Shown here: positions 9,315-59,491 of the stretch, piece after piece
Layout: each line of letters starts with the position of its first letter
Numbering within the stretch: the first letter of the stretch is position 1
Assembly: GCA_046483495.1 (NCBI GenBank)
Contig: JAWODC010000092.1
Span: 96,001-160,000 of the forward strand
DNA length: 64,000 nt
Reading direction: 5' to 3'
From: Desulfobacterales bacterium
Lineage (GTDB): Bacteria; Desulfobacterota; Desulfobacteria; Desulfobacterales; UBA5616
The notes under the pieces: model-generated
What the model was told of the DNA's origin: nothing
What the model saw: only the letters and a program-made list of their open reading frames with translations
The model's database searches: none
Translations under genes and position numbers: made by a program

Positions 9315-9332
9315 ATACGGTGAATCCTGTAT
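9315..9332 (-). promoter_or_regulatory. 18-bp dyad box for the BON-ppsA-atp operon
   Basis: ATACGGTGAATCCTGTAT; TAAATT on the minus strand starting at 9292, 22 nt away. Confidence 0.6.
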
Positions 9333-9391
9333 TTGTCCGACAATGATCATCCACGGATACGACATGGATAGGGTTTCCCAAACGGGAAGAA

Positions 9392-9409
9392 ATACGGGTT
9401 ATTCGGTAT
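9392..9409 (+). promoter_or_regulatory. 18-bp dyad box for the phosphoribosyltransferase operon
   Basis: ATACGGGTTATTCGGTAT; TATGAT at 9433, 23 nt away. Confidence 0.5.
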
Positions 9410-9483
9410 TTATTTATCCTCTCCATTCATCATATGATCTGAAAACGCCGGATATACCGAAAATCAACGCCGGAGGTGAAAGA

Positions 9484-10224
9484 ATGGGAAACGTCCACGA
9501 AATCGAAAAATATCATAATGTAGTCCGTATATTCGCCGATCGGGTGCATGCGGGAAAGCTCCTGGGAGAAATGTTGCAGCCGGTGTATGGCGCCGAAGAC
9601 CTGGTCATGGCCATACCCGCCGGGGGAGTGCCGGTAGGAATGACGGTTGCCCGGATGTTGGGGTGCCCGTTTGACATGGTCATTGTCCGCAAGTTGAAAA
9701 TTCCGGGGAACCCCGAAGCCGGTTTCGGCGCCATGACCACTCAGGGCACCCTTTTTCTGAATGAAGCCCTTTTGCAGCAGCTTGATTTGAGACCTGATCA
9801 AATAGGCCGGGAGGCGGAACGGGTAAAGGCGGAACTTGAGGAGCGGGATAGAAGACTCAGGGGGGGCAGGGCGTTTCCCGACATAAAAGGCAAACGAGTA
9901 ATTATCGTTGATGACGGCCTTGCTTCCGGTTATACCATGTTGGCTGCGGTGTACCTGATTAAGAAAAGCATGGCCAGCGAAGTTGTCGTGGCTGTCCCTA
10001 CCGCACCGCTCACAACCATTGAATCGATAGAATCCGGTGTCGATCGGATTTACTGTGTCAATATACGGGAGGTCGGCCATTTCGCCGTTGCGGATGCGTA
10101 TCGGAACTGGCGCGATTTGACGGAAAACGAGATACTCCACATGCTGTCCGTGCAGCAGAAACCGCGAAGTAGCCACCGATCCGCGGCTGAAGAATATAAA
10201 CGGACGGATACGTCTCCACCATAG
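9484..10224 (+). CDS. Phosphoribosyltransferase (Rv0571c/Rv2030c N-domain-like)
   Basis: FADRVHAG, IPAGGVPV and VIIVDDGLASG PRPP loop; GGAGG RBS. Confidence 0.9.
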   Translation: MGNVHEIEKYHNVVRIFADRVHAGKLLGEMLQPVYGAEDLVMAIPAGGVPVGMTVARMLGCPFDMVIVRKLKIPGNPEAGFGAMTTQGTLFLNEALLQQLDLRPDQIGREAERVKAELEERDRRLRGGRAFPDIKGKRVIIVDDGLASGYTMLAAVYLIKKSMASEVVVAVPTAPLTTIESIESGVDRIYCVNIREVGHFAVADAYRNWRDLTENEILHMLSVQQKPRSSHRSAAEEYKRTDTSPP

Positions 10225-10271
10225 TCGCAAACCTCTAAAATCACCATTCTGCAAGAGAGGAGAGGTACAAG

Positions 10272-11039
10272 GTGTTGCGCAGTTTGAAAGAATTATACAA
10301 CTATGTTCTGTCCGCTGAAGACGGAGATATCGGAAGGTGCAAGGATTTTCTGTTTGATGACCGCTTCTGGACGATTCGGTACATGGTTGCGGACACCGCC
10401 AAATGGCTTCCGGGGAAAAAAGTGCTGATATCCCCTATTTCCCTTGCCTCTCCTGACTGGCGAAGCCGGCGATTGCCGGTCAAATTAACCAAGGACCGTA
10501 TCAAGGGGGCGCCGGAGCTGGATGAAGATGCACCCGTGAGTCGACAGCACGAAATTCGATGGACGAAATACTATGGATGGCCTTTTTACTGGCAGGGTCC
10601 GGGGGCTTGGGGGTATGTCGATTACCCGTATTCCATGTACGTGCAGCGGCAGGTCCAGGAAAATGTGCAACACCGAGAAGAAGAAACGGAAAAACACGAG
10701 CGGGATCAGCACCTGCGGTCGGCCAGGGAGGTCACCGGGTATCATATTCAGGCCGTGGACACCGACATCGGCCATGTGGAGGATTTTATACTGGATGATG
10801 AGACATGGACCATCCGATATATGGTGGTTGATACACGCAATTTTCTTCCCGGCCGCAACGTGTTGATCACGCCGGATTGGATAGAATCCGTGGATTGGGC
10901 CTTGAGCGAAGTCAGTGTCGATGTTCCCGCTGAAGCCGTTAAAAACAGTCCGCCCTACGATCCCAAAATTCCTGTCAATCGCGAATATGAAGTCCGGCTG
11001 TATGATTATTACGGCCGGCCTGTCTACTGGCGGGAGTAG
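10272..11039 (+). CDS. Tandem PRC-barrel domain protein
   Basis: Two G.IG...DF.DD..WTIRY.V.DT repeats; HLRS; YYGRPVYW. Confidence 0.9.
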   Translation: MLRSLKELYNYVLSAEDGDIGRCKDFLFDDRFWTIRYMVADTAKWLPGKKVLISPISLASPDWRSRRLPVKLTKDRIKGAPELDEDAPVSRQHEIRWTKYYGWPFYWQGPGAWGYVDYPYSMYVQRQVQENVQHREEETEKHERDQHLRSAREVTGYHIQAVDTDIGHVEDFILDDETWTIRYMVVDTRNFLPGRNVLITPDWIESVDWALSEVSVDVPAEAVKNSPPYDPKIPVNREYEVRLYDYYGRPVYWRE

Positions 11040-11212
11040 GCATGGGTCAGGGTCGGTGCTGCCGTTTCAACCGCCAGTGCCGATGGGGTTGTTCGGCTTT
11101 GATTCGCTTCACTATCGTTTCGGTAAGATCTCGAAACGGAATAGGCGACCAAGGCCATGGCCAAAATAAAAAGAAGGCCCAGTAAAAGATATAACAGCTT
11201 CCTTTTTGTCAT
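11024..11212 (-). CDS. Small single-TM hypothetical protein
   Basis: MTKRK followed by a hydrophobic helix; AAGGGG RBS; 16-bp convergent overlap. Confidence 0.45.
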   Translation of the reverse strand: MTKRKLLYLLLGLLFILAMALVAYSVSRSYRNDSEANQSRTTPSALAVETAAPTLTHAYSRQ

Positions 11213-11315
11213 AAAACCCCCTTAAACCGCCCTTCCTACGGGCTTTTTATTAACGTTTATAAAAAACGGTTACGCTGAATGGTCCCCTGACATGACGTCA
11301 AGGCCATTGATCGGC

Positions 11316-11341
11316 CCGATCCGCCTTTTACGGCGGATCGG
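11316..11341 (-). terminator. Hairpin downstream of degP
   Basis: CCGATCCGCC-TTTTAC-GGCGGATCGG perfect 10-bp stem 17 nt after the stop. Confidence 0.6.
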
Positions 11342-11357
11342 ACTTCGCGGAAAACGC

Positions 11358-12803
11358 TTATTGGATTTGCAGCGTACGATATTGGGTGTTCCCGTCCCGA
11401 TTCACCAGAAGCAGAATATGTTCTCCGGATTCGAGCTTTTTTACTTTTTCGAGTAGATCATCGACACTCCGAACAGGATCCTGCTCGGCCTCCACGATAA
11501 CGTCCCCGACCCTCAGGCCGGCCTCTGCCGCAGGTGATCCGGGGACCACCTGCAAAACGGCGACCCCCGAGGATACGGGCAAATTGAATCTTGCGGCAAG
11601 TTCCGGAGTGACATCCTGCACCCCCATTCCCAGTCGGGGTGTTTCTCGATCCTTTTGGGTTCGACCGGCTCTTTCGGTTTCCGTCTCGAGTTCGCCGACT
11701 TCCACGGTGACCTGCCGGGACGTGCCGTCTCTGATCATTTCGACCTCGACTCTTTTGCCGACTTCGGTGTTGGCGACGACTTTCGGCAGGTCAGCCATTT
11801 CCTCGATTTCCGTACCGGCAAATGACTTGATCACATCGCCACGTCGGATTCCGGCTTTATCCGCCGGTCCACCCTCCGTAACATCGGAAACCAATGCCCC
11901 CTTACCTGCTTCCAAGTTCAGCTTTTGCCGGATTTCGGGGGTGATTTCTTGAATCAGCACCCCGAGCCATCCCCTGACGACTTTACCCTTTTTTAGCTGG
12001 GGAAGAATACTTTTGGCCGTATCGATGGGGACGGCGAATCCTATGCCGATATTTCCGCCGGATCTGGAAAAAATGGCGGTATTGATGCCGATGACCTCAC
12101 CATCGATATTCAAAAGTGGACCGCCGCTGTTCCCCGGATTGATAGAGGCATCTGTTTGGATGAAATCTTCATACGCACTGGTGCCGATTCGCCGATATTT
12201 CGCGCTCACAATTCCTGCAGTAACCGTATTGCCGAGTCCGAACGGACTTCCGATAGCCACAACCCAATCTCCCACTTCCACTTTTTCCGAATTTCCCAAT
12301 GGCACTTCCGGCAACTTTTCCTCTGCGTTTATCCGGATAAGCGCCAGGTCGGTCAATTCGTCCATTCCCACGATTTCGGCGTCGAAATTGCGGCCGTCGG
12401 AAAGCGTTACCTCGATTTCCGTTGTTTTTCTCACCACGTGGGAATTGGTGATAATCAGCCCTTCAGAATCGATGATAAAACCGCTTCCAAGGCTTCTTTG
12501 TTTGAACTCGCGAGGCATTTGATCTCCAAAAAACCTTTCGAAGAACTCGTTGAACGGATCACCCGGCCCGAAGGGGCTTTCCGGGATATTTTGAGAAGCG
12601 ACGACCTTGACGGCACTGATGTTCACGACGGACTCACCGACCTCCTTTACAAGACTGGAAAAACTGCCGGGATCAGGGCGGACCTGAGCGACAGCAGCGG
12701 TAATGACAACAGGATCTCCTGTCCCCATGGGAATGGCACTGACCGTCATACAAAGGATAAATGCAATGCCGAATGTCAACAGCGGTGTTAATTTATGTTT
12801 CAT
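11358..12803 (-). CDS. degP: Do/DegP/DegQ serine endoprotease with two PDZ domains
   Basis: GSGFII, TNSHVV, DLAL, IQTDASINPGNSGGPL; signal peptide. Confidence 0.95.
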   Translation of the reverse strand: MKHKLTPLLTFGIAFILCMTVSAIPMGTGDPVVITAAVAQVRPDPGSFSSLVKEVGESVVNISAVKVVASQNIPESPFGPGDPFNEFFERFFGDQMPREFKQRSLGSGFIIDSEGLIITNSHVVRKTTEIEVTLSDGRNFDAEIVGMDELTDLALIRINAEEKLPEVPLGNSEKVEVGDWVVAIGSPFGLGNTVTAGIVSAKYRRIGTSAYEDFIQTDASINPGNSGGPLLNIDGEVIGINTAIFSRSGGNIGIGFAVPIDTAKSILPQLKKGKVVRGWLGVLIQEITPEIRQKLNLEAGKGALVSDVTEGGPADKAGIRRGDVIKSFAGTEIEEMADLPKVVANTEVGKRVEVEMIRDGTSRQVTVEVGELETETERAGRTQKDRETPRLGMGVQDVTPELAARFNLPVSSGVAVLQVVPGSPAAEAGLRVGDVIVEAEQDPVRSVDDLLEKVKKLESGEHILLLVNRDGNTQYRTLQIQ

Positions 12804-12890
12804 GATGCTTCCTCCTAACCGGGCGTAATCGGATATAATACGGTATTTCTATAATATTCATAATAAAATCATTTTTTTTCTGTAATGAAC

Positions 12891-12908
12891 ATCGGGTAAA
12901 TCCCGTAT
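12891..12908 (-). promoter_or_regulatory. 18-bp dyad box for degP
   Basis: ATCGGGTAAATCCCGTAT; TG-A-TTTTAT on the minus strand 22 nt away. Confidence 0.55.
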
Positions 12909-13360
12909 TCGACTGAGGTTCATGAAGCATTTATGGTTCTGCACGACCGATCGGGCCGAATAAAAACCGGGTTCCCGATTGAGATATTTCCTAGTGAGGC
13001 CCTCGTTTAAACAGGATGCGAGTAGACAGTGTGGATTCATGCGGTATGAATTACGCTATATGTTGTATTTTATGAACCGGATGCCGATGAAGATGCTTTG
13101 AGAAATAAATCAGTAAATATCCATTTATTCCTGATGTTCAATTTGCCGGATCAATGGTATGTTAATCAAAACATTGAAAACAAGGTATAAAACTGTTGCT
13201 TTTTTCCGTGAATTCAAATGCGTTTTACCGTTCATGGAATGCAGCATATGAGTGCAGGAAAATCAATCGGCAAAAAGTGCATATGAAAACCGCAGTCAAC
13301 GGGAAGACAAATCCCGTATGCGGCGTGTGGAAAGAAACGGAAAAAAACACGGAACCCATC

Positions 13361-14029
13361 ATGAAAAACAAGCATCGGGTAATGATAGCGGAAGATCACG
13401 ATATCGTGCGCCAGGCGCTGCGGTATATGATCACCAACCGATTTAAGGAAGTGGATGTGGTGGCGGAGGCGAAAGACGGCCTGGAAGCTATCAAGTTTAT
13501 CCGGAAATATCATCCGGATATTCTGGTCCTCGATATCAGCATGCCGAAACTTGACGGTTTCTCCGTTATCGATGCGATTCGGCATTTCAGTGAAAACATA
13601 AAAATAATCATTCTGACCATCCATAAAAATGAAGAATATATTCGCACGGCCTTTAAATACGGCATAAATGCGTATTGCCTGAAATCCTCCTCATTCGATG
13701 AACTGGCAATGGCTATACGGATGACGTTGTCCGGGAAACGCTTCATTACACCGGAGATTTCCAAAAATGTATTGAACGGATACTTGGAAAATGCCGACGA
13801 CATCGAAAAGGTAAAAGAGAAGACCATATGGGACAATATTTCACAGCGCGAACGGGAAGTGCTGAAATTGGTCGGAGAAGGGTATAAAAACAGAGAAATC
13901 GCAGATTACCTGTGCATCAGTTTAAAAACGGTTGAAAAGCACAGATCGAACATCATGAAAAAGCTGAATATGCACACCTCCAGCGCTCTGGCAGCTTATG
14001 CCGCAAAAAAGAACCTGGTTACGTTTTAG
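13361..14029 (+). CDS. NarL/FixJ-family response regulator (REC + LuxR HTH)
   Basis: AEDH, LDISMP, SQREREVLKLVGEGYKNREIA..L.IS.KTVEKHR; start uncertain. Confidence 0.95.
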   Translation: MKNKHRVMIAEDHDIVRQALRYMITNRFKEVDVVAEAKDGLEAIKFIRKYHPDILVLDISMPKLDGFSVIDAIRHFSENIKIIILTIHKNEEYIRTAFKYGINAYCLKSSSFDELAMAIRMTLSGKRFITPEISKNVLNGYLENADDIEKVKEKTIWDNISQREREVLKLVGEGYKNREIADYLCISLKTVEKHRSNIMKKLNMHTSSALAAYAAKKNLVTF

Positions 14030-14599
14030 AACCTGGTTACGGTTTTAATTGTTGGCGTTCACAAACCCCCGAAAGCGAATTTTAAATCGAAAAAACGAAC
14101 AATTCGAACAAAAGGAAGCGCTTACACGGGCGATGTGTATAGATATTACTTGCATTTTCAACAATTTTCTGCGATATATTATAAGTATAAAAACGTTAGA
14201 CTCACCAACGTAATCCAATACTGCAGCACCTGAAATAATTATTGAAATTCACCGTTTCGATTTGGGTTGTATTTAAACCCTGATACCCGTTTCGCAATTT
14301 TATGATGAATTCAGCCCGGTGAGGCTCCCATGTGAATCCCGGATGCGAACATGAGGAATTGGGAACCGGCCGATCTTAAAAAAAGGCTGATTCGGGCGTT
14401 CATCGAGCGTCTGTTCTCGAAGCGCTTTTAAGTTTCCTTTCGCACTGCGGCTGTACGGATACTTGCACGGCAAGGCGGAAAGATGAAAAAATCGGATTTC
14501 GAATGCTTCGTGGAAAACCAATGCCCGAGGCTACGGCCACTGCATCGGCCATAAAAAATTCCTTGGTTTTTTTAGAGGAAATAACCGAGGATTATTCAA

Positions 14600-15325
14600 A
14601 TGGGAAATAAACACAAAGCGGACGTCGGAAATGCCGGGTTGAATGCCGCCAAGCAAAAAAAAACGAGGGTGTTTTTGGTCGACGATCATCGTGTCGTGGT
14701 GGAAGGCATTCGCAACTACCTTGCCGATAAAGGGGACTTCGAGGTAATCGGCTATTCCATTGACGGCAGGGATGCTGTCAGACAGGTCAGGGCGCTGAAG
14801 CCCGACATAGTTATCATGGATGTGTTCATGCCGAATTTCAACGGCGTCGAAGCTGCTTATGAAATCACCAAGTCCGGACTGCCGACAAAAATCGTCGCTT
14901 ACACCATGTCTTCCGATAAGGAGCATGTCCTTTCGTTTTTCCGGGCGGGCATTTCCGGATATGTTCTTAAGGAGGATGCCCTCGAAGATTTACTGCGGGC
15001 CCTGGAGGCGGTCAAGAGCGGCGGCACCTATTATTCAAGGATTGTCGACAAGCATATACGAACCCGCATGCAAAGTCTCGAACGGGGGGATGCAGCCGGT
15101 GTTACCGCGCCCGAGGACGGCATCGGACGCTTGAGTTTTCGGGAGAAGGAAATCCTGCCGATGCTGGCCGACGGAAAAAACAGCAGAGAAATCGCCGAAG
15201 TTTTGCACATCAGCCCCAAAACGGTCGAATCCCACAAGTACAATATTATGGAAAAGCTCGGTGTTTCCACAGTTGCCGCTTTAACAAAGATAGCCATTAA
15301 GGAAAAGCTGATCAAAATTGAATAA
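14600..15325 (+). CDS. NarL/FixJ-family response regulator
   Basis: VDDH, MDVFMP, LSFREKEIL...ISPKTVESH. Confidence 0.95.
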   Translation: MGNKHKADVGNAGLNAAKQKKTRVFLVDDHRVVVEGIRNYLADKGDFEVIGYSIDGRDAVRQVRALKPDIVIMDVFMPNFNGVEAAYEITKSGLPTKIVAYTMSSDKEHVLSFFRAGISGYVLKEDALEDLLRALEAVKSGGTYYSRIVDKHIRTRMQSLERGDAAGVTAPEDGIGRLSFREKEILPMLADGKNSREIAEVLHISPKTVESHKYNIMEKLGVSTVAALTKIAIKEKLIKIE

Positions 15326-16628: not shown

Positions 16629-16646
16629 ATAGGGTTCATCCTGTAT
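16629..16646 (-). promoter_or_regulatory. 18-bp dyad box for the ferritin-like gene
   Basis: ATAGGGTTCATCCTGTAT; TATAAA on the minus strand at 16606, 22 nt away. Confidence 0.65.
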
Positions 16647-16759: not shown

Positions 16760-16777
16760 ATAGGGGATTTTTGGTAT
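16760..16777 (+). promoter_or_regulatory. Degenerate dyad box for the Mth938-like gene
   Basis: ATAGGGGATTTTTGGTAT; TAAATT at 16800, 22 nt away. Confidence 0.45.
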
Positions 16778-19876: not shown

Positions 19877-20160
19877 ATCTTTTGTTCCAAAAATATAAAG
19901 TATTGCGCCTGAGGCGGCATTGCTGAAAAATTCATATTATTATACCATTTTCAACGTGAAGATTGAAAGAAATTTCCTGCCCGGCGGAAGCCAGGTTCAT
20001 AGCGTTCGAAAAGCCGACGGCAGATGTCACCTACCACGATGCCGACAAAAAAATACATTTCATCCTTTATTCAACCAGCATTTCATACATGTAAAATTGA
20101 TTACAGAGCATGTGAACCGGTGTAACGGTGAAAATATAAACGAGAGGAGGCCGTCGATTC

Positions 20161-22363: not shown

Positions 22364-22777
22364 GCTCCACTTCTTTTCACATCTCGTTCATCCCTCAAAA
22401 TCGGCTGATTCGGGAAGTTGTACAATTGCTGGTTCGCTGAAACCGACGCTAAAAACGTCTGACATGCAAGGACCGGGATTCTGATTTTTGTAATGCAGGC
22501 TGCCGCGCCGGTAAATGAGGTCAATCACTTATATGCATCTCGATCGGCCCGTATCCGGCGACGGCTAAGCTTTCAGATATCGTTTGCGAAGCGTGTGGTG
22601 TTACGATGCCGATCTGAAAGTACAAGGGCTGGTTACAAGCGATACGTGCTTTCCCCCATTGCCTCGAAAAGAAACGGTTTGTAGAGTTTGTGCCGGCACT
22701 ATTTAGAAATATCCGGATGGATAGCGGCCGAAAATCAGCTGCTCGACCGGCCTACCCGTTTACATGGAATTGCGAAC

Positions 22778-23137
22778 ATGAGACGAACCTTATTATGTGC
22801 GGCGGCATTCATGAGCTTTTGTATTTTGTCCGAGCCGAACGCCGATTATAAAAAGCTGCGCAGACTCGATCACTATTTCGAGGTCGAGAATTATGAGCGG
22901 CAAGGAAACGGCTTTATCATCGAGGTTTCGAATAAGAGCAAACAGGGCTTTGCCGATTTCACCGTAATTTTCAATGGCTACAATGTCAACCGCGTCCATA
23001 TTTACCGACGCGAAACCATTGTCGACTTCATGGAGGGAAAAAGCGAACGAACCTTCTTCCTGCCGGGATATGATAAGCGGGTGTTCAGGATAGAAATCGA
23101 AGTCTATGATAAAAGTCCGGTACCGAAAGGCTATTGA
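22778..23137 (+). CDS. Hypothetical exported protein
   Basis: Signal-peptide-like MRRTLLCAAAF; beta-rich body; family not recognised. Confidence 0.55.
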   Translation: MRRTLLCAAAFMSFCILSEPNADYKKLRRLDHYFEVENYERQGNGFIIEVSNKSKQGFADFTVIFNGYNVNRVHIYRRETIVDFMEGKSERTFFLPGYDKRVFRIEIEVYDKSPVPKGY

Positions 23138-23180: not shown

Positions 23181-23198
23181 GTACAGGGAAACCCCCAT
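23181..23198 (+). promoter_or_regulatory. 18-bp dyad box for dodecin
   Basis: GTACAGGGAAACCCCCAT; TATGGT at 23220, 21 nt away. Confidence 0.6.
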
Positions 23199-24099: not shown

Positions 24100-24117
24100 A
24101 TAGGGTTAATCCTGTAT
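24100..24117 (-). promoter_or_regulatory. 18-bp dyad box in the ybhB/polX divergent region
   Basis: ATAGGGTTAATCCTGTAT; TG-T-TATGAA on the minus strand at 24077, 22 nt away. Confidence 0.65.
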
Positions 24118-24246
24118 ATTATCGCAACAAACGTTATGGATAATAGGATAATGAATTATCGTTTTGACCCATTCATTTTTTCAGAAGATAGAAGTAATGT
24201 AACCGTATAAAAATGGGTCGGCGAAGATAGAAAGGACCTGTAACCC

Positions 24247-25968: not shown

Positions 25969-26176
25969 AATGTATCTGATCCCCGGCGGATGCGAATCGT
26001 TTTGCAATTCGATCGGATTTTGGTTAAACTGGAATTTCAAATGTCAGGGTTCATGTCTACGCGATTTGGGCCATCCGCCGGCATCGACTGATCCGCCGGA
26101 AAGGCCAGAACCGCAGCGCCGGGCAAGGCCGCGACCAGCTTGGAGAAACGATCTGTCAAGCCAAGGAGACGAAGAA

Positions 26177-27301
26177 ATGGAAGAAAAAAGCAATCCAATG
26201 GAACTGGAAAACATATCCGATATTCAGATAGTCATGGATCTGGTTTCTGACTTGATCTGCATTATCGATAAAGACGGCTGCTTTACTTTTCTCAATATGG
26301 CCTGGGAAGAAACGGTGGGCTATGCAGTACACACCTTAAAAGGTAAACCGTATCTTGATTTCGTCCATCCGGAGGACCGTGAAAAAACGGAGACGGAATT
26401 TAAGAAGCACTTGACGGGGTATCCCACACCGACGTTCGAAAGCCGGTTTAAATGCAGTGACGGCACCTTTACGGTTCTTGAAGTACGAATGTTATCGCCT
26501 GATCAAAACCGCATTTTGGCCGTTGCAAGGGATATGACAAAAGAGAAGAAGAATGAAGAAGCCATCCGATACAACGAAACCCGGTTCAGGACTTTATTTG
26601 AAAATGCCTTGAACCCGATATTCGAGATTGATGGGGATGGGAGGTTTCTCAACGCCAATACGGCCGCCCTCGATTTTTTGGAGTGCAGTCGCGGTGAAAT
26701 CTTTTCTAAACGGTTGTCTGATTTTTCGACGCAAAAAGATTCGGGTCGGGCGCTTAAACCCGGTGCATCTCTGGAGACCGGCATTTTTGAAGAAGATTAT
26801 GTCGTTAACGGGAACCTCAAAACACTGATTCTGCGCATGGCCCCATTGGACGTTGAAGACGTGAAAACGTTTTGCGCCATTGGATATGATGTCACAGCAT
26901 TCAGAAAAGAGGCCGAAGAAATCCGCGAAGAAGCCGCACCCGCCAAGATCCGTGTCCTGTTGGCCGATGATCATCCGGTTATGCGGGATGGGTTGTCCCA
27001 ACTGCTTTCTTTGCAGCCGGATATCGAGGTTGTCGGTGAAGCATCGGATGGGAAAGAAGCGGTGGAGAAAACCCGTGAAATGTCACCGGATGTCGTATTA
27101 ATGGATGTCAACATGCCCAACATGAACGGCGTTGAAGCGACACGATTGATTCATTCGGAATATCCCGATATTCGAATCATCGGGTTGTCCATGTTCGGGG
27201 TTGACTCAAAAGCCTCGGAAATGATTTATGCAGGCGCATCCGCCTATCGGTCTAAAAGCGGCAATACCGATTTGCTCGTCGCATCGATTCGCGGAACCTG
27301 A
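26177..27301 (+). CDS. PAS-PAS-receiver protein (no kinase or output domain)
   Basis: Two PAS domains (FVHPEDR; FRTLFENA) then VLLADDH...MDVNMP REC ending at the stop; AAGGAG RBS. Confidence 0.85.
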   Translation: MEEKSNPMELENISDIQIVMDLVSDLICIIDKDGCFTFLNMAWEETVGYAVHTLKGKPYLDFVHPEDREKTETEFKKHLTGYPTPTFESRFKCSDGTFTVLEVRMLSPDQNRILAVARDMTKEKKNEEAIRYNETRFRTLFENALNPIFEIDGDGRFLNANTAALDFLECSRGEIFSKRLSDFSTQKDSGRALKPGASLETGIFEEDYVVNGNLKTLILRMAPLDVEDVKTFCAIGYDVTAFRKEAEEIREEAAPAKIRVLLADDHPVMRDGLSQLLSLQPDIEVVGEASDGKEAVEKTREMSPDVVLMDVNMPNMNGVEATRLIHSEYPDIRIIGLSMFGVDSKASEMIYAGASAYRSKSGNTDLLVASIRGT

Positions 27302-27372
27302 TGCGGCATGCCGATTTCAGGAGGCGTTAAGAGCGGATCTGCTTGCAGATTACGAGTAGAAAGGATCGAAAA

Positions 27373-28473
27373 ATGGCAAAAGACCCGGTATGCGGCATGG
27401 AAGTCGATGAACGGCGGAGCCATTCGCATAAAGCGGTTTACATGGGAAAAACATACTATTTCTGCTCGAATGACTGCAAGGCGACGTTTCAGCGCAATCC
27501 CGAAAAACACATCAAAGCCTCCCGATCACCCGTTACGGCCAAGCGAAAAGTCGTGGTGGTCGGAACAGGAGAAGTGGGAGCCACCTTATGCTTCGCCCTG
27601 CTGATAAGCGGTCTCGCCTCGGATATCGTTCTCATTGACAAAGACTTCGAGAGAGCCGAAGGCCATGCGATGGATTTGAATCATGGTCTTTCATTCGTGC
27701 AGCCCACCCGTATTTTCGCCGGTAATTATCCGGACTGCAGGGACGCTGATGTCGTCATCGTAACCGCGGGTGCCGCGCAGAAGAAAGGGGAAACACGCCT
27801 GGACCTCGTTCGAAAGAATACGGAAATTTTCAGAGACATCATACCTAAGACAACCGAATACGATCCAGGAATTATTCTGATCGTTTCCAATCCGGTGGAC
27901 ATTCTGACCTATGCAGCCTATAAATTTTCCGGATATCCCATGAACCGTGTCATCGGGTCCGGAACCACCCTGGACACCGCCCGCTTTCGATTTTTACTGA
28001 GCCGTCACTGCCGAGTCGATCCGCGAAACGTCCACGCGTACATCATCGGGGAGCATGGGGACAGCGAAGTCCCGGTGTGGAGCCAGGTGAACATCGCCGG
28101 AGTGCCGTTGAGGGATTACTGCCCTGTGTGCAGCCGTAATTGTGGCCCGGAGGAGCAGAACGAAATCTTTCAACAGGTCAAGCATTCGGCCTATGAAATC
28201 ATCAATCGCAAAGGGTACACCAATTTTGCCATAGCGCTTGCCCTCGTCCGCATTCTGAACAGCATACTTCGCGATGAAAACAGCGTCCTGACCGTCTCAA
28301 GCCTGATTGACAATTACTACGGTGTAAAAGATGTCTGCCTCAGCATTCCATGCATTTTGAATGTCAACGGCGTCTTTCAACACATTTATATCAACCTGAA
28401 TGAGGCGGAGCGCAGCTTGTTTCGGGATTCCGCCGATACGCTGAAATCAATTATCAAAGAACTCCGTTTATAA
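27373..28473 (+). CDS. ldh: L-lactate dehydrogenase with N-terminal YHS domain
   Basis: DPVCGM...YYFCS..C YHS; VVGTGEVG, AGAAQKKGETRLDL (Gln = LDH type), GEHGDS. Confidence 0.93.
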   Translation: MAKDPVCGMEVDERRSHSHKAVYMGKTYYFCSNDCKATFQRNPEKHIKASRSPVTAKRKVVVVGTGEVGATLCFALLISGLASDIVLIDKDFERAEGHAMDLNHGLSFVQPTRIFAGNYPDCRDADVVIVTAGAAQKKGETRLDLVRKNTEIFRDIIPKTTEYDPGIILIVSNPVDILTYAAYKFSGYPMNRVIGSGTTLDTARFRFLLSRHCRVDPRNVHAYIIGEHGDSEVPVWSQVNIAGVPLRDYCPVCSRNCGPEEQNEIFQQVKHSAYEIINRKGYTNFAIALALVRILNSILRDENSVLTVSSLIDNYYGVKDVCLSIPCILNVNGVFQHIYINLNEAERSLFRDSADTLKSIIKELRL

Positions 28474-31385: not shown

Positions 31386-31403
31386 ATACATTCATTGCCC
31401 CAT
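31386..31403. promoter_or_regulatory. 18-bp dyad box serving divergent glgA/glgM
   Basis: ATACATTCATTGCCCCAT; TG-T-TAGACA at 31426 (+) and TATAAG at 31363 (-), each 22 nt away. Confidence 0.55.
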
Positions 31404-50383: not shown

Positions 50384-50401
50384 ATGGGGTCAATTATGTA
50401 T
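50384..50401 (-). promoter_or_regulatory. 18-bp dyad box for the otsA-glgE-treS-glgB-treZ-GH57-malQ operon
   Basis: ATGGGGTCAATTATGTAT; extended -10 TG-C-TATAGT on the minus strand at 50361, 22 nt away. Confidence 0.6.
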
Positions 50402-52486: not shown

Positions 52487-53491
52487 TTACAATTGGCTTC
52501 CCATCATGGCGGCGAGGTCGACCATTCGGCAGGCATATCCGAATTCGTTGTCATACCATGAAAGCACTTTTACCATATCATTGATGACATCCGTGCTGGG
52601 CCCGTCCACAATCGAGGACAGCCGGTTGCCTTTGAAATCCATGGAAACCAGAGGTTGATCGCAATACCCCAGAATGGCCGGAATCTTGTTTTGTGCGGCT
52701 TCCTTGAGTGCTTCATTCACATCGGTCACGCTGATGCCGGATTTTTCCACTACGGCAACGAAATCCACGACCGAAACCGTTGGCGTGGGGACCCGAATAG
52801 CCATGCCGTTCAGCTTTCCGGTAAGCTCGGGCAGCACGAGAGAAACGGCCTTTGCCGCCCCCGTCGAGGTGGGCACAAGTGAAAGCGCCGCCGCTCTAGC
52901 CCGCCGGTAGTCTTTATGCGGAAAATCGAGGAGGCGCTGATCGCTGGTGTAAGAATGAATGGTCGTCATCAGACCGCTTTTTATCCCGAAATTTTCAAGC
53001 AGGACTTTGGCAACCGGCGCCAGGCAGTTGGTGGTGCAGGAGGCGTTTGACACGATATGGTGCTTTACCGGGTCATATTGATTGTCATTAACACCTAAAA
53101 CGATCGTGATATCCGGGTTTTTAGCCGGAGCGGAAATGATGACTTTTCGGGCTCCGGCCGTCAGATGTCCCGACGCCTTTTCGGCCTCCCGAAAGATTCC
53201 GGTGCATTCACAGACAATCGTCACACCGTGGTTCTTCCATGGAATCCGTTCCGGCTCTCTCTCATTATACAGTGCGATCGAATTTCGATCCACGCGTATC
53301 GCATTCTGGTCGGATTCCACCTCCCGGTCCAGAATGCCGTATGTTGAGTCATATTTCAGCAAATGGCCCATCATGGCGCTGTCGGAAAGGTCGTTTATCG
53401 CCACGATGTTTACCTCGGGGTGATCCAGTGCCGCCCGCATGATCATCCGCCCGATCCGGCCGAACCCGTTAATACCGACGTTTATACTCAT
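52487..53491 (-). CDS. gap: Type I glyceraldehyde-3-phosphate dehydrogenase
   Basis: GINGFGRIGR, SNASCTTNCLAP, WYDNE. Confidence 0.98.
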   Translation of the reverse strand: MSINVGINGFGRIGRMIMRAALDHPEVNIVAINDLSDSAMMGHLLKYDSTYGILDREVESDQNAIRVDRNSIALYNEREPERIPWKNHGVTIVCECTGIFREAEKASGHLTAGARKVIISAPAKNPDITIVLGVNDNQYDPVKHHIVSNASCTTNCLAPVAKVLLENFGIKSGLMTTIHSYTSDQRLLDFPHKDYRRARAAALSLVPTSTGAAKAVSLVLPELTGKLNGMAIRVPTPTVSVVDFVAVVEKSGISVTDVNEALKEAAQNKIPAILGYCDQPLVSMDFKGNRLSSIVDGPSTDVINDMVKVLSWYDNEFGYACRMVDLAAMMGSQL

Positions 53492-53962
53492 AGGTGCTCC
53501 TTTTCATTTTCTTGGCAAGCGGTATAGGAATTCACCCGAAAACCGCAGCGCCGTTCATGCAGTCCGGATTTGAGGGACAGGCATTCGATTCCAGCCGTAT
53601 CCGTCACATTTCCTTTTAGAACTACGGCAACGGGTTGTCATTTTCAATGGATCAAATCGGGTATCCATCGTGAAAAAGCTATGTATAAACCATTACAAGC
53701 GGTGGGGCTGCGGCATGGCCGTCGGCTGAAAAGATAAAACATACATGTGGACGGCCGCGGGAATGCATGAATAAGCGTATTGTTTCGATTTTGACGCTGT
53801 GACAGCATTGCAGTAAATTGCGCTATCGGAAATTATATTTTTTTATGCCGGCAATCCTGGTGGAAATTGTAAAGACCGGTGAGCGGCAATCATCGGCGGC
53901 CGAACTTCGGAAAGACAGGCACCGGGATCGAGGATTTAACCGAAAACAGACGGGAAAACGAT

Positions 53963-55330
53963 ATGCCGACAAAAAGACTAGTCGTAATCGGAGGCAATGC
54001 GGCCGGAATGGGGGCTGCCTCCCAGGCGAGGCGTCAGCAGAACGATTTGATCATAAAGGCATTCGAAAAGACGCCCTATCCGTCCTATTCACCATGAGGC
54101 ATTCCGTACCTGATCGGCCGGGTAGTCGATAATCCTGAAAAATTGATCGTCCGAACCCCCAGAGTTTTCAGGGAAAAACAAAATATTGAAACCTACGTAT
54201 CCCATGAGGTCCGGGAAATCGATATCGAGCGTCAGCGAATCCGCGTCCAGCGCAAGGAGGATGGAAAAACCTGGTGGGAGCCTTACGATCACCTGATGAT
54301 CGCAACGGGGTCCGTTCCCATACGCATTCCGGTGCAAGGATCGGATTCAGAAGGCATTTTCGGCGTCAACACCTATGAAAGCGGAATTAAGCTGAATCGG
54401 TTCCTGGATGACGCGTCGGCTAAGAACGCCGTGGTGATCGGCGGCGGTTATATCGGACTGGAAATGGCCGAGAATCTGATCAAAAGGGGACTGAGCGTTT
54501 CATTGGTCGAATTGAACAAAGAGGTGATGTCAACGCTGGATCCGGACATGGGAAAACTCGTATCCGATGCGCTGATCGAGATCGGTGTGAAACTTTTTCG
54601 GGAGGAACGGTTCGAGGGTTTTGAAACGGACAACGGGCGCGTCAGGGCGGTGGTCACCGATAAACGGACATTGCCCGCCGATGTTGTTGTACTGGGTATG
54701 GGGGTTCGGCCGAATACGGAACTCGCCCAAAAGGCCGGTATCCCCATCGGTCCGTCAAAGGGGATCAGGGTGAATCCGCTCCTGCAGACGGACGTGGAAA
54801 ACGTATGGGCGGGAGGGGATTGCGCGGAGTCCATTCACCTGGTCAGCGGCAAACCTGTTCATATCCCCCTTGGGACGGTGGCGAACAAACATGGCCGGGT
54901 GGCGGGGATCAACATCGGCGGCGGGTATGCCACCTTTCCCGGCGTAGTCGGGACGGCTATGAGCAAAATATGTGCGGTCGAGGTCGCCCGAACGGGTCTT
55001 GGAGAAAAAGAGGTGCAACGTATCGGGCTGCACTATATCACCTCGGTTACACGGACCAGGACACGTGCGGGTTACTACCCGAATGCGGATTCTATTTCAG
55101 TAAAATTGATTGCCGAAAAAAACACCGGCAGATTACTCGGTGCCCAAATCGTCGGCAGAGAAGGGGCTGCCAAACGAATCGATATTCTGGCAACCGCCCT
55201 GCATCGAAGAATGAACCTCCAGGAAATTATGGATTTGGACCTGAGTTATGCGCCTCCGTATTCACCTGTTTGGGACCCGGTGGCATTGGCGGCACGGGTG
55301 GCCTTGAAAAAACTTCAGCCCGATACATAA
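53963..55330 (+). CDS. cdr: CoA-disulfide reductase/NADH oxidase family selenoprotein (Sec45)
   Basis: ORFs 53879-54097 and 54143-55330 share a frame, separated by one TGA (54095) in SYSP-U-GIPY, the catalytic Cys position (SFxxCGxPY); GGNAAG FAD motif; GGGYIGLE; DLSYAPP. Confidence 0.88.
54107..54124 (+). promoter_or_regulatory. Candidate bacterial SECIS hairpin
   Basis: TACCTG-ATCGGC-CGGGTA stem-loop starting 10 nt after the UGA, with G in the loop. Confidence 0.5.
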
Positions 55331-55413
55331 GGCAACCCGCACCGAGCACCGAAGCGGGGTCCGGAAATCATCGCGCTTTTGGAAATATCCCCGAAAGCTG
55401 AGGGAGGGTATGG

Positions 55414-56022
55414 ATGAGAATATGTTGGGCTATTGCCGCCGTCCTGATCGTAACGGCCCTTGCGGGTACGGCATATATCTGGTCGGGAGCATACAATATA
55501 TCGGCAAACGTGCCTCATTACCGGGTCACCTTTCGGCTGATGGAAGCACTCAAGAATCGATCCGTAAAATATCATGCCTCGGATATTCCGAATGTGCTGT
55601 TCGCCGGTCCGCTCGACGGTGCGCATAATGCCGCAATCACTTATTATCACGACATGTGCCGTCGGTGCCATGGCGGTCCCGGTATATTGCGGGATACCTA
55701 TGCCTTTGGACTGAATCCTGTTCCGCCGGACTTGACCACGGGAGAAGAACAAAAGCGATGGACGGATATTCAGCTCTTCTGGATCGTGGTCAACGGAATT
55801 AAATTGACCGGTATGCCGTCGTTCGGAGAAACGCATACCGAAGCTGAAATCTGCGATATCATCAATTTTCTCAACAGGCTGCCGCAGATGAGCGCCGCAG
55901 AATACCTGGCTCTTTCGGGAGCGTTGGAAAAAGAAAAACCCGAACCCCGCGATCACCATGAATTCAGGCCGTTTCCACTGGAGCCGGAAATCGGCAGAAG
56001 TATCGATTACTTTATTCTATAG
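55414..56022 (+). CDS. Membrane-anchored monoheme cytochrome c
   Basis: N-terminal TM helix, SGAYNISA, CRRCHG.PG, P.PPDL, NGIKLTGMPSF. Confidence 0.9.
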   Translation: MRICWAIAAVLIVTALAGTAYIWSGAYNISANVPHYRVTFRLMEALKNRSVKYHASDIPNVLFAGPLDGAHNAAITYYHDMCRRCHGGPGILRDTYAFGLNPVPPDLTTGEEQKRWTDIQLFWIVVNGIKLTGMPSFGETHTEAEICDIINFLNRLPQMSAAEYLALSGALEKEKPEPRDHHEFRPFPLEPEIGRSIDYFIL

Positions 56023-56174
56023 AGAAGGAGAGCCGGCTGTCGAGGCTGTTGCAGACTCCCCGCCGATACGTTAAAATGGCAATACGAAAAGACAAGCCAT
56101 TGTTTTGATTGATAGAGCTATTCGGCAAAATAATGATTCACGGGTGAAGACAAAAAGCAAGGAGAAGAGAAGCT

Positions 56175-57083
56175 ATGAAGGAACAGGCATTCGATGTCAT
56201 CATATTGGGAGCCGGACCGGCGGGATTTCAGGCGGCGCTGCATGCGGTGCGCAGGAAAGCATCGGTTCTTCTGCTTGGCAAGGCCGCAAAAAGCAGCGCC
56301 CACGGTTCTCATATCGAAAATTTTTGCTGCATCCACGGCACGTCCGGTACCGAAATGCTGAAGCTCGCGAGTGAGCAGGCCCGGAAGGCGGGAGCCGTCG
56401 TTTCGGATGAGGATGTCATCGATGTGGAAACCGTCGACGGACGATATGCCGTTTATGGAGAACGCGGCGGAAAATATACGGCCGCGGCAATCGTTCTGGC
56501 GATGGGCATTTCACGCAACAGCTTGAAACTTCCCGGAGAAAAGAAGCTGATCGGCCGCGGTATCAGCTACTGTGTCGATTGCGATGGGCCGCTGTTTAAA
56601 AACGAGCCGGTGGCGGTTGTCGGATGCGAAAGTGCAGCAGGGAGCGGCGCGTTGACTTTGATGTTTTTCACTCCTGAAGTGCACCTGATCTGCGAGGCGC
56701 TTCACATGGATGACTATTTGGCGGAGAAAATCAAAAGCAGCGATATCCGGTTGCACGAAGGCCGAAAAGTGACGCATATCACCGGTGAAACGGAACTCGC
56801 CGGGATCGCATTGGATGATGGGACAAAATTGGACATCAAAGGAATGTTCATCGAACTCGGGGCAAAGGGCGCCGTCGGATTGGCCGGAAAGCTGGGCGTC
56901 AGGATGGATGAAGAAAATATGAAGTATGTAGCCGTCACGAGAAAGCAGGAAACGAATCTTCCCGGCGTATATGCCGCCGGTGATATATGCGGGCCGCCAT
57001 GGCAGGTAGCCAAAGCTGTAGGGGAGGGGTGCGTTGCCGGGCTTGAAGCGGCGGCGTATGCACGAAAGCCTAAATCCGGATAA
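56175..57083 (+). CDS. Thioredoxin-reductase-like FAD/NAD(P) oxidoreductase
   Basis: GAGPAG, GISYCVDCDG, TNLPGVYAAGD, AVGEG. Confidence 0.92.
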   Translation: MKEQAFDVIILGAGPAGFQAALHAVRRKASVLLLGKAAKSSAHGSHIENFCCIHGTSGTEMLKLASEQARKAGAVVSDEDVIDVETVDGRYAVYGERGGKYTAAAIVLAMGISRNSLKLPGEKKLIGRGISYCVDCDGPLFKNEPVAVVGCESAAGSGALTLMFFTPEVHLICEALHMDDYLAEKIKSSDIRLHEGRKVTHITGETELAGIALDDGTKLDIKGMFIELGAKGAVGLAGKLGVRMDEENMKYVAVTRKQETNLPGVYAAGDICGPPWQVAKAVGEGCVAGLEAAAYARKPKSG

Positions 57084-57218
57084 ACGGAACAGGCGAAGGA
57101 ATCAAGTTTGGTCAAAAAGTGGACATAAACGCATGGCAAGCAGATGGATTTTTCCGGTTTTTCAAACGATATATGAAAAAAACCGGCTTGCATCGAAATA
57201 CGATGGGGTATTTGGCGT

Positions 57219-57620
57219 ATGAGAGAATCACTCGAAGGGGCGGTCAGACTGGGGCGCCGCATGGGACATATCTTTGTGGCGACGGCCGATGCCCGTGGCG
57301 TTCCACACATGGCCTCCTCTGCAAATATCAGAATTGAAGGGGAAGGACTTATCGGCATTTCCGAATGGTTTTGCCCTGTAACGCTTTCAAATGTGAGGGT
57401 AAATCCCAAAATCGCCCTGCTGGCATGGGACCCCGAGACCGATATAGGGTATCAGATGATCGGCACTTGCCGGGAAGTGCAGGAAACATCCATGATGAAC
57501 GGTTTTTCAGAAGAATTGGATGAAGAGCAGCCGATTCCCCAGGCGGAAAACACGCTCCTCGTCTCCATAGAAAAAATCATTCAGTTCAGCCATGCGCCTC
57601 ACAGTGATGCGGGAACATGA
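57219..57620 (+). CDS. Pyridoxamine 5'-phosphate oxidase-like FMN-binding protein
   Basis: FVATAD..G.PH, EWFCP.T..N...NP.IAL..WD..GYQ. Confidence 0.85.
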   Translation: MRESLEGAVRLGRRMGHIFVATADARGVPHMASSANIRIEGEGLIGISEWFCPVTLSNVRVNPKIALLAWDPETDIGYQMIGTCREVQETSMMNGFSEELDEEQPIPQAENTLLVSIEKIIQFSHAPHSDAGT

Positions 57621-57704
57621 TAACCCGCTTCCAATGGATGTTGTATCCTGTGGTTCAATTCCCTCCCTGGGTCGAGTGATTTTGCCGCGCTATAACGCAG
57701 ATAT

Positions 57705-58490
57705 TCAGGATTTCTGGCACGCGGGGCAATAGTAGGCGGACCTGCCTGAAATTTTTATACGATGAACCTTACCATTGCATCCGGGGCAGTCGGCATCTTC
57801 CTTCCGATGGGAAATCAGAAATTTTTCAGGCATTTTTTCCGGATCGGCACGGCGCTCGATCGCCGTTTCCAGAACCGATTTCATGGACTCGTACAGCTTT
57901 CGGGATTCTTTTTTATCGAGGCCGTTTGTTTCCTTTTGGGGGTGTATCCGTGCCTGAAAGCAAACCTCGTCCGAATACACATTTCCAATTCCGCACAACG
58001 TATTCTGCTTCATTAAAAACGATTTGACCCCTGAGCGGTTTTCGGCCAACATTTTTTGAAAAGCATCGTATGTCACGTCCAGTGCATCGACACCCAGTTT
58101 CTTTTTTTTCACGAACGTGTCGATGTCTTTTGTCCACCCGATTTTCCCCAATTTCCGGGTACAGTCATAGGCCAGGTGGTTTTCGCCGTCAAAATCAATC
58201 AGCAGCCGTACGTGCTTGGGCATGCCGTCTTCCGCTTGAACAAACGTGACAAACCCGGTCATGCCGAAATGAAGGGTCATCCACTCCCCTTTTTTCAACC
58301 GCGCCAGGGCATATTTCCCATAGCGGGCGGTTTCCTCGAATGCGTTGCCCTTCAATTCGGATTGAATTTTGGTTTTGGAAACGGACTCGAGAATTCCCGC
58401 ATCGAGTACTCGGCACCGTTCGATGGTCCTGTTAAGGGAGGTGTCGTCGATGATTCGTCTGAAGATCTCAACGTCCGGCAGTTCAGGCAT
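57705..58490 (-). CDS. mutM: Fpg/Nei family DNA glycosylase
   Basis: MPELPDV, RYGKY, HFGMTG, GIGNVYSDE, CPGC...CPAC zinc finger. Confidence 0.92.
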   Translation of the reverse strand: MPELPDVEIFRRIIDDTSLNRTIERCRVLDAGILESVSKTKIQSELKGNAFEETARYGKYALARLKKGEWMTLHFGMTGFVTFVQAEDGMPKHVRLLIDFDGENHLAYDCTRKLGKIGWTKDIDTFVKKKKLGVDALDVTYDAFQKMLAENRSGVKSFLMKQNTLCGIGNVYSDEVCFQARIHPQKETNGLDKKESRKLYESMKSVLETAIERRADPEKMPEKFLISHRKEDADCPGCNGKVHRIKISGRSAYYCPACQKS

Positions 58491-58597
58491 TTTTACTTCC
58501 TTTCGTCACCATCAGTTCGTGGGCTTCGTTTTCGGCTTTTGTATCGCCGATAGAGAAGTTCTGCCCGTAGTCGGCGCCGGGAAATACATTTCCCGTT

Positions 58598-59095
58598 TTA
58601 CCCTTTTTCGGACAGCATCTGTTTCAGTTTTTGCTCATCGGTGTGGGCCAAGGATGCTTTCATGACCTTTCCATCGAATTTTTCGAGCTCCCCGAGAATG
58701 TCTGATGCATGTTCGCCGTGAAAAATGAGAAACAGCGCCGATGTGCCGGGCCGAAGCTCGTCGGCCAGCCTGCGCATGAATCCCTCATCCAGGCCGATGT
58801 CCTCGGTCGCCCCGACAGCCGCTCCTGCTATGCCGCCGACGATTCCCCCGAACAATGCGAGCAGCGGATTGATAATGATCAAACCGGCCAGAAAACCCAA
58901 AAACCCGCCACTCAAAGCGCCGGGGAAGGTGAACTGATGCGAATGATGAAAATGAACGCGGTGTTTATTGTCGATTTCCACAATAACGGATTCCTCGAGG
59001 TCGACCCCTTTTTCTTCCATGACCCGGTTGATATGCTTTCGAATGTTTTCTGCTCTTTCCAAGGATTGCGACGTCTTGATGATAAGATCGGGCAT
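58598..59095 (-). CDS. DUF1269 family membrane protein
   Basis: GALSGGFLG.LAGLI..NP, DIGLDEGF...LADELRPGTSALF. Confidence 0.85.
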   Translation of the reverse strand: MPDLIIKTSQSLERAENIRKHINRVMEEKGVDLEESVIVEIDNKHRVHFHHSHQFTFPGALSGGFLGFLAGLIIINPLLALFGGIVGGIAGAAVGATEDIGLDEGFMRRLADELRPGTSALFLIFHGEHASDILGELEKFDGKVMKASLAHTDEQKLKQMLSEKG

Positions 59096-59190
59096 ACTTC
59101 ACCTGTTTTTTTTCGCTTCAGATTCAACTTGAGAACCAATGATAATTATTTCTTTAAAATACTTCGTATCTGTACTCGAAGCATTTGGAA

Positions 59191-59208
59191 ATGGGGTGAA
59201 TACGTTAT
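59191..59208 (-). promoter_or_regulatory. Dyad box for DUF1269-fpg
   Basis: ATGGGGTGAATACGTTAT; TACGAA on the minus strand at 59168, 22 nt away. Confidence 0.45.
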
Positions 59209-59473
59209 TTTGAAAGCGGCCGGCATGTAAATCACGGTGAGAAGACCGGTTGACGCGTTTCGCTGTGCTTTACCCATCATGGGATGCCTGTTTTTAAATC
59301 GCGATCAGGTTCGATGGCGACACCTATGTCGACACCGATATCGATATTGAAACGTCAAAGCGCCGATGGTTCGACGTTCACTGATTCAAAGGATTTCAAA
59401 AAAGCGAAAACCTTGCTCTCAGCCGCAAAATGTTTCTGAATGGACACCGAAATAATCGGAGTTCGACCACGCC

Positions 59474-59491
59474 TTACATGGTTTCCCCCAT
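59474..59491 (+). promoter_or_regulatory. Dyad box for the cytochrome P460-family gene
   Basis: TTACATGGTTTCCCCCAT; TAATAA(T) at 59514, 22 nt away. Confidence 0.55.

Follow-up and report, generated by a model that had tools for sequence, protein, structure and literature searches.

An oriented 18-bp promoter element found before about 90 genes of a Desulfobacterales genome, and its candidate NarL-type activator

Results and discussion

Box sites and genes in the window

We analysed 64,000 nt of a Desulfobacterales genome (G000; positions 96001-160000 of contig C11, below called the window), in which a preliminary description had noticed a recurrent 18-bp intergenic sequence and had read it as the activator site of an island-wide regulon. 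This sequence, termed the box, proved to be real and genome-wide, not confined to the window: it precedes about 90 genes and lies, about half the time, exactly 22 nt before a promoter-like element. The genome comprises 4.19 Mb on 94 contigs (96.7% complete). The closest named relatives of the protein encoded at 14600 are Desulfobacteraceae, Desulfobacterales and Desulfatiglandales records, in keeping with a host in Desulfobacterota. Genes and intergenic regions were called with our own simple hexamer gene finder (3646 genes), so that some start codons are uncertain. Genomes, contigs of G000 and loci are designated by G, C and L numbers, respectively.

Pfam and NCBIfam searches of the window proteins backed the gene labels assigned earlier, i.e., N-ATPase, ppsA, BON, degP, two regulators with receiver (REC) and GerE domains, an encapsulin-type ferritin-like protein, dodecin, YbhB, PolX, glycogen and trehalose genes (TreY and TreZ scoring over cut-off), Fpg, DUF1269 and cytochrome P460. 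All 14 of the 18-mers quoted in the preliminary description were present at their positions, which denote the left end on the plus strand. The box sites and the two regulators are listed below, with positions counted within the window and the gap given in nt between box and -10-like hexamer.

9315-9332 (-): primary box of the BON-ppsA-N-ATPase operon; 23.8 bits; -10 TAAATT at 9287-9292
9392-9409 (+): weaker, near-symmetric box toward a phosphoribosyltransferase gene; p_region 0.003
12891-12908 (-): primary box of degP, divergent from regulator 13361; 23.8 bits; TTTTAT (no TA) at gap 22
13361-14029 (+): RR1, NarL/FixJ-type response regulator with REC and GerE domains, candidate activator; paralogues on C77 and C88
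14600-15325 (+): RR2, another NarL-type regulator, from a separate clade; possible alternative binder, not required for the motif
16629-16646 (-): primary box of the encapsulin-type ferritin-like gene; TATAAA at gap 22; ATAC half-site 22 bp upstream
16760-16777 (+): weak box with halves in reverse order, toward DUF498; TAAATT at gap 22; p_region 0.008
20053-20070 (+): weak box in the AAA_33-DsbA spacer; TAAAAT at gap 21 on the DsbA side; p_region 0.002 for DsbA, 0.013 for AAA_33
22515-22532 (-): added box toward a CAAX protease gene; 19.6 bits; TACAAA at gap 22; ATACGG 22 bp upstream
22642-22659 (+): added box toward an open reading frame (ORF) ending at 23137; 21.2 bits; TAGAGT at gap 22
23181-23198 (+): dodecin box, weakest of the main sites; 8.5 bits; TATGGT at gap 21; p_region 0.003
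24100-24117 (-): primary box of ybhB; 25.5 bits; TGtTATGAA at gap 22
24155-24172 (+): added weak box toward polX; TAATGT at gap 22; p_region 0.004
31386-31403 (+): primary box of the GT4 glycosyltransferase-treY unit; 17.1 bits; TGtTAGACA at gap 22
50384-50401 (-): primary box of the otsA-glgE-treS/mak-glgB-treZ-GH57-malQ gene run; 22.3 bits; TGcTATAGT at gap 22
53647-53664 (-): weak box facing gap, with a perfect ATACAT 22 bp upstream and TAGTTC at gap 22; p_region 0.001
53763-53780 (+): added weak box toward a pyridine-nucleotide oxidoreductase unit; ATACAT 22 bp upstream; p_region <0.001
59191-59208 (-): primary box of DUF1269-fpg; 15.9 bits; TACGAA at gap 22; TTACAT 22 bp upstream
59474-59491 (+): primary box toward cytochrome P460; 18.4 bits; TAATAA at gap 22

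For the nine main sites, a spacing of 22 nt to a -10 element (21-23 nt at three of them) had been claimed. Seven have TA at gap 22, the exceptions being dodecin, where TA lies at gap 21, and degP, where it is lacking. A composite test found a significant site at 17 of the 30 heads of transcription units in the window, in line with the claim that the box precedes most of these units; the heads lacking one included both regulators, glgA, trxB and Omp85. Four weaker copies (9392, 16760, 20053, 53647) passed this test as well, while a fifth at 13118 failed with -13 bits, ruling out autoregulation of 13361 through that copy. The TATAAG hexamer assigned earlier to 31386 belongs to a reading of this box toward glgA, which is weak (p_region 0.2), and two-way use of the site was not significant.

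Enrichment and architecture of the box

A de novo search of the 32 intergenic regions of the window (7.4 kb) against an order-3 background returned the box as top motif at k = 8, 12 and 16, the motif at k = 16 containing all nine main sites. A first expectation-maximisation search with an order-0 background had yielded only GC-rich terminator-like motifs. The de novo scores did not discriminate the window (141) from 32 control sets (85-246), a comparison that is uninformative because a genomic repeat family dominates the controls; one control set (C70) yielded the same box de novo. An orientation-blind matrix, apparently contaminated by this repeat family, was excluded from the logo. An intergenic repeat with a consensus of about TGNCCATCCNGAAATGG is abundant on many contigs (e.g., C17, C18, C33, C46), and C56 and C69 carry ATGGGTT repeats in tandem.

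A matrix built from the nine main sites alone was then applied to the intergenic DNA beyond the window (482 kb). At a threshold of at least 14 bits, 67 matches were obtained compared to 7, 5 and 4 in three dinucleotide shuffles, and at least 16 bits were reached by 43 matches compared to 1, 2 and 2, so that enrichment over background was borne out. Coding DNA yielded 36 matches in 3.27 Mb. In single-direction spacers, 26 of 29 matches were oriented toward the downstream gene. TAnnnT followed after exactly 22 nt in 23 of the 67 out-of-window matches (0-5 at other gaps between 12 and 33), and TA alone was found at gap 22 in 35. With a matrix derived solely from 87 out-of-window sites, eight of the nine main sites scored 15.9-25.5 bits (p ≤ 2e-6), while 23181 reached 8.5. 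The label "island-wide" is thus unsupported, because about 87 further sites lie elsewhere in the genome and the box density on contigs C70, C77 and C57 (18-20 per 100 kb) is comparable to that of the window (15.6). Horizontal acquisition of the window as an island was likewise unsupported by GC content (51.7% vs about 49-53% in other large contigs).

Upon iteration, the matrix converged on 97 sites, of which ten belong to the window and 91 face a gene; the shuffle counts suggest that several are chance matches. The consensus, (AA)ATACRK-NN-WT-N-MCCBYAT(TT), is asymmetric. At 8 bits per half, 48 sites showed the order left-right, whereas only two were left-left and two right-right. The box is thus composed of two unlike halves and not, as previously assumed, a simple palindromic dimer site. 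A second left half was detected exactly 22 bp upstream, with T in 61 of 97 sites and TAC in 23 (0-4 at other offsets), only the outer half of this upstream site being conserved. Loci of related genomes (45 distinct sites) exhibited the upstream TAC in 22 cases (0-1 at other offsets), and 28 had TA at gap 22; the latter count is biased, the former not, because a few loci were fetched for having TA. The asymmetry and the upstream ATAC half-site are new features, and both recur in relatives.

Taken together, the layout has three parts. An ATAC half-site comes first; the full box follows it by 22 bp and covers about -52 to -35, and a further 22 nt separate the box from TAnnnT. If the T of TAnnnT corresponds to -12, the box is centred at about -43.5. 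On this layout, transcription is predicted to start about 35 nt beyond the box, with +1 near 9280, 16594, 22694, 24065, 31438, 50349, 59156 and 59526. A -35 hexamer is not conserved, as only 3 of 97 sites come within one mismatch of TTGACA. Fixed gap, poor -35 and position are those of a class II activator site, and the gap and position given in the preliminary description were upheld out of sample. The extended -10 TG that it had noted at some promoters is not general (4 of 49 sites).

The right half offers another reading. CCCCAT resembles the -10 element of sigma-32 promoters, which consist of TTGAAA located 13-15 nt before CCCCAT, and the box might represent an alternative-sigma promoter instead of an operator. 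Four proteins of the sigma-70 family were found in the genome, i.e., RpoD, two extracytoplasmic function (ECF) factors and a protein that we take to be RpoH-like on account of its RpoH box, so that a suitable sigma factor would be at hand; RpoS and SigB were not found among these matches. We consider this reading highly improbable: TTGAA at the sigma-32 spacing occurs at none of the 97 sites, the right half varies as CCBYAT, and the TAnnnT peak 22 nt downstream would stay unexplained.

A different conserved promoter element was observed in G189 (L214:1616, L215:931, L216:987). It is composed of GTAGGAATTTCCTAC followed by ATGGGGG-N4-CCCCCAT, with TA at gap 22, and one copy adjoins another NarL-type gene. 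This element probably belongs to a sister regulon with another regulator. Its symmetric right-right sites were not counted as support for the box, because the upstream palindrome differs.

Target genes and RNA contigs

Genes immediately downstream of sites outside the window (n = 53) could be assigned to a Pfam family at 1e-8 in 33 cases, while 20 had none. They include universal stress proteins (USP, two), CBS proteins (two), BON, Ku, Hsp20, catalase, rubrerythrin, cytochrome oxidase subunit II, FtsH, NAPRTase, PFOR, PDH E1, GAPDH and a receiver-only protein. Among the downstream ORFs of related genomes, 33 of 48 were scanned; OtsA, BON, USP, a GT4 glycosyltransferase, Ni-SOD, desulfoferrodoxin, Ku, NAPRTase, receiver-only proteins and HisKA_3 kinases were encountered.

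Contigs from RNA runs labelled salt lake metagenome cover several targets with pieces at least 99% identical. Among the matches listed, pieces end 7-19 nt inside the predicted +1 of the ferritin-like gene, ybhB, the 22642 ORF and two C77 promoters. Pieces of three studies begin 13-16 nt inside the predicted +1 at C77:18695, and one piece begins 9 nt upstream of the +1 predicted for dodecin. Assembled contigs cannot show transcription starts, and we regard these ends as a weak hint to start positions. A boxed pair of small ORFs (90 and 100 aa) on C77 (L072:9696-10547) was covered by RNA contigs in all four runs, the contig starting at 9761-9764 in three of them.

Several further observations concern individual loci. 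On C70 (L071:10622-14124), a strong box precedes the genes for cytochrome c oxidase subunits I and II, which in a presumed anaerobe points to oxygen scavenging. A 102-aa ORF behind a box (L074:12146-12454, minus strand) matched a holin family below cut-off. In the N-ATPase operon (window 1-9048, minus strand, and L081:7804-16593), a Na+/H+ exchanger sits between atpQ and atpR; beyond the window, this operon is followed by a 14600-type regulator and a trehalose-phosphatase/GH65 fusion. A lactate/malate dehydrogenase with a fused YHS domain is encoded at 27343-28473 (plus strand).

Distribution in related genomes

A strict pattern, i.e., the exact box including the 22-nt gap and TA, was used for other genomes, although it catches only about 20 of the 97 sites in G000. 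It gave 28 matches in G000 compared to 0.5 expected, the largest count seen, and recurred in many families of the same order, where none of 200 genomes had more than 7. In other classes of the phylum, G416 (13 matches), G364 (12), G392 (9), G396 (9) and G322 (7) stood out, with backward controls at 0-1. Among 20 genomes reached via named loci, two Desulfatiglandaceae metagenome-assembled genomes contained 13 and 8 matches and one from Syntrophobacteraceae contained 5, while none was present in Solidesulfovibrio alcoholivorans or in four genomes from outside Desulfobacterota (three of Candidatus Marinacidobacterales, and Marine bacterium AO1-C). The scope of the feature accordingly extends from one island to a regulon spanning the phylum. 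In G463 (the genome of L033), six of nine strict matches are copies of one repeat, a box-plus-spacer 42-mer in six identical copies, perhaps on a mobile element.

The candidate regulator

Both local regulators had been suggested for binding assays. RR1 (13361) contains an N-terminal receiver and a C-terminal GerE/LuxR helix-turn-helix, with PF00072 and PF00196 over cut-off. Residues D12, D58, T86 and K108, which we take to be the acidic-pocket residue, the Asp, the Thr and the Lys of a phosphorylatable receiver, are conserved in the alignment. G000 encodes ten GerE-domain proteins, among which 13361 and its C77 and C88 paralogues form one clade (100/100). The solved structures nearest to 13361 are generic (VraR, DesR, NarL); no NCBIfam equivalog cut-off was reached among the 25 matches listed, and some RR1 homologues are automatically named NreC.

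Large regulator searches, in which 11-14 candidates were scored per genome, indicated that the RR1 clade tracks the motif. It was found in 72 of 200 genomes of the class sample and in 21 of the 24 with at least three strict matches. In the phylum sample, 48 of 250 genomes possessed it, including 19 of 20 with at least two matches and all ten with at least three. Within genus g141, seven genomes with 3, 3, 3, 1, 0, 0 and 0 RR1 copies showed 12, 9, 13, 2, 0, 0 and 0 strict matches, respectively. Moreover, a box lies at most 500 bp upstream of 9 of 28 RR1-clade genes, compared to none of 35 other NarL-type genes in the same genomes. We thus regard a NarL/LuxR-type binder as probable, in agreement with the earlier proposal, and RR1 as the better of the two local candidates, the 14600 type not being required.

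Several observations weigh against RR1 as the binder. Three motif-rich assemblies lack an RR1-clade gene, namely G176 (5 matches, 91% complete), G478 (8) and G479 (16); all three are fragmented and carry RR2-type genes. G478 and G479 also lack a receiver-only neighbour, as does the RR1-positive G464. More than half of the RR1-positive genomes in the phylum sample (26 of 48) have no strict match, and RR1 of the window has no supported box of its own in the composite test. Co-occurrence and adjacency are equally expected of a co-regulated target, and related genomes are not independent, so that p-values overstate the association. The strict asymmetry of the halves is more typical of heterodimers (PMC4125116, PMC3950696). 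Finally, no HisKA_3 kinase was found within 5 kb of the three RR1 genes of G000.

The asymmetry raises the question whether the box is read by two proteins or clades, either RR1 with a heterodimer partner or RR2 as an alternative binder. Unlike halves in fixed order are known for BldM-WhiI and BglJ-RcsB; RR1 and RR2 adjoin in G000 and in G029, and the three motif-rich assemblies without RR1 could be served by their RR2-type genes. When genomes were picked via RR2 relatives, 9 of 13 from Desulfobacterota or unclassified deltaproteobacteria, plus one from Syntrophobacteraceae, had 5-19 matches. We nevertheless consider a two-protein box unlikely. RR2 is absent from several motif-rich genomes with complete GerE lists (e.g., G206, G022, G197, G392, G396), and RR2-like proteins occur in six of the 250 phylum genomes, all six with no strict match. 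No second NarL/GerE clade was common to 15 motif-rich genomes (for G364, G416, G003, G015, G106 and G204, among the matches listed). G206, which has a single RR1, possesses a left-left box that is symmetric and has TA 22 nt away on either side. An asymmetric homodimer is therefore favoured, given the lack of a shared partner clade and the symmetric box in this genome.

An activator from another family might also bind the box, RR1 being a conserved regulon member that travels along. The box indeed faces some RR1 genes (L178, L181, L184), the three motif-rich assemblies lacking RR1 would be accommodated, and the profiling across genomes covered part of the regulator families. Boxes near RR1-clade genes, however, usually face away, toward a receiver-only gene, which is the usual arrangement of a regulator beside its target, and the tandem 22-bp phasing and the 34-nt distance fit the NarL-family protein DevR. 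As to Crp/Fnr, the genome has one over-cutoff protein, and the box lacks the TGA-N6-TCA core of that family (PMC3721108). We judge such a passenger role of RR1 to be improbable, more so than a two-protein box.

Histidine kinases were present near RR1 in 17 of 27 loci, and most of the 12 that were scanned belong to the PAS/GAF HisKA_3 type (also with MASE3). G000 encodes 13 HisKA_3 kinases, none of which adjoins an RR1 gene. Nine of them, related orphans on C7, C12, C17, C18 (two), C28, C48, C49 and C50 (L204-L211, L169), represent a lineage expansion with no adjacent regulator; they are mostly PAS-rich with a C-terminal receiver and read LHDxLQQL where the H-box was printed. Within the window, 25970-27301 (plus strand) encodes a PAS-PAS-receiver protein without kinase core, whose receiver resembles those of the orphan hybrid kinases and which may be a truncated or decoy member.

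Proposed mechanism and meaning

Weighing these points, we consider the box a conserved, oriented promoter element and likely the site through which the RR1 clade activates about 90 general-stress and dormancy promoters of the housekeeping sigma factor. Sequence, spacing, orientation, conservation and gene linkage are observed directly, and the following steps are proposed on top of them. PAS/GAF HisKA_3 kinases would phosphorylate RR1, and a dimer of RR1 could then bind the strong box beside RNA polymerase and replace the missing -35 contact, i.e., class II activation from about -43.5. Two helical turns further upstream, a second dimer may join by cooperative binding, similar to DevR at its primary and secondary boxes. 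The fixed left-right difference would reflect an asymmetric homodimer with set orientation toward the polymerase, and the boxed single-domain receiver gene beside RR1 could act as a feedback element.

More tentatively, and with somewhat less than even confidence, we propose that Desulfobacterota possess a general stress response of their own that dispenses with an alternative sigma factor. Many soluble PAS/GAF HisKA_3 kinases might converge on one NarL-type master activator, with feedback by a single-domain receiver. This activator would assemble as an oriented head-to-tail array on a fixed three-part promoter (half-site, asymmetric box, -10) and switch on up to about 100 oxidative, osmotic and dormancy promoters. 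Among the major anaerobes of sediments and wetlands are the Desulfobacterota; for the lineages sampled here, the coordination of survival of oxygen, salt and starvation is undescribed in the papers searched. The outcome of the analysis is a promoter signature applicable to scans of any genome, together with a candidate master regulator and about 90 targets, many of them functionally uncharacterised. It also adds an example from nature of a box that is asymmetric and strongly oriented and apparently serves a single NarL-type protein.

Comparison with known systems

The sigma-dependent general stress responses of RpoS, SigB and EcfG include trehalose/glycogen genes, catalase, ferritin-like proteins, Ku, DegP and YbhB among their targets and employ several sensor kinases and a single-domain receiver. 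The present system differs in that no such sigma factor was found and that control is apparently exerted by an activator at a housekeeping-type -10. NreC, whose name some RR1 homologues bear, goes with a TAGGG-type palindrome and an Fe-S PAS kinase; no CxxC..CxxC pattern was found in five adjacent kinases. In Desulfovibrio vulgaris, we take DVU2577 and DVU2675 to be NarL/LuxR-type regulators. A DNA-affinity-purified-chip (DAP-chip) study of this organism gave no motif for either (PMC3333781). A regulon of the present kind was not described in the paper listings and abstract openings searched; the supplements of PMC3333781 or motif databases of the RegPrecise type could hold a related motif.

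In the lxa low-oxygen locus of Burkholderia cenocepacia, stress genes (USP, alpha-crystallin, phospholipid-binding proteins, cation ATPase, Zn protease) are likewise clustered, and a single motif recurs at many intergenic points as well as at other loci (PMC3721108). Its motif, TGA-N6-TCA of the Fnr/Anr type, is unlike the box. BldM-WhiI and BglJ-RcsB heterodimers share with our system a non-palindromic box of unlike halves, which for BglJ-RcsB is oriented toward the promoter (PMC4125116, PMC3950696). Here, no shared partner clade and no separate palindromic homodimer class were found, the latter in G000.

RcsB, a FixJ/NarL-type protein, resembles the proposed activator in its pseudo-palindrome at a like position and in a large regulon overlapping general-stress genes. 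The homodimer binds -33 to -53 of rprA (PMC7913699), and RcsB is described to bind DNA as an asymmetric dimer (PMC5829831). Its consensus TN(G/A)GAN4TC(T/C)NA is found at none of the 97 sites, and RR1 scored 82 bits against a cut-off of 235 for the RcsB model.

Target types also overlap with those of DevR/DosR of Mycobacterium tuberculosis, whose dormancy regulon includes USP, CBS, Hsp20, cation ATPase and trehalose genes. The half-site GGGAC, with G5 and C7 essential, occurs at none of the 97 sites; the box described here is oriented and asymmetric, serves about 90 promoters and extends to Ku, PolX, Fpg, catalase, glycogen and N-ATPase genes. DevR is induced by hypoxia or NO through kinases of the heme-GAF type; those neighbouring RR1 are PAS/GAF/MASE3-HisKA_3 proteins. 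The likeness includes a NarL-family activator (a candidate in our case), an 18-bp box, a proximal distance of 33-34 nt to the start (a predicted one in our case) and a strong primary site in tandem with a poorly conserved, helically phased secondary one (PMC3177182). On these grounds, the system appears to work like DevR/DosR, yet it is neither DevR nor RcsB.

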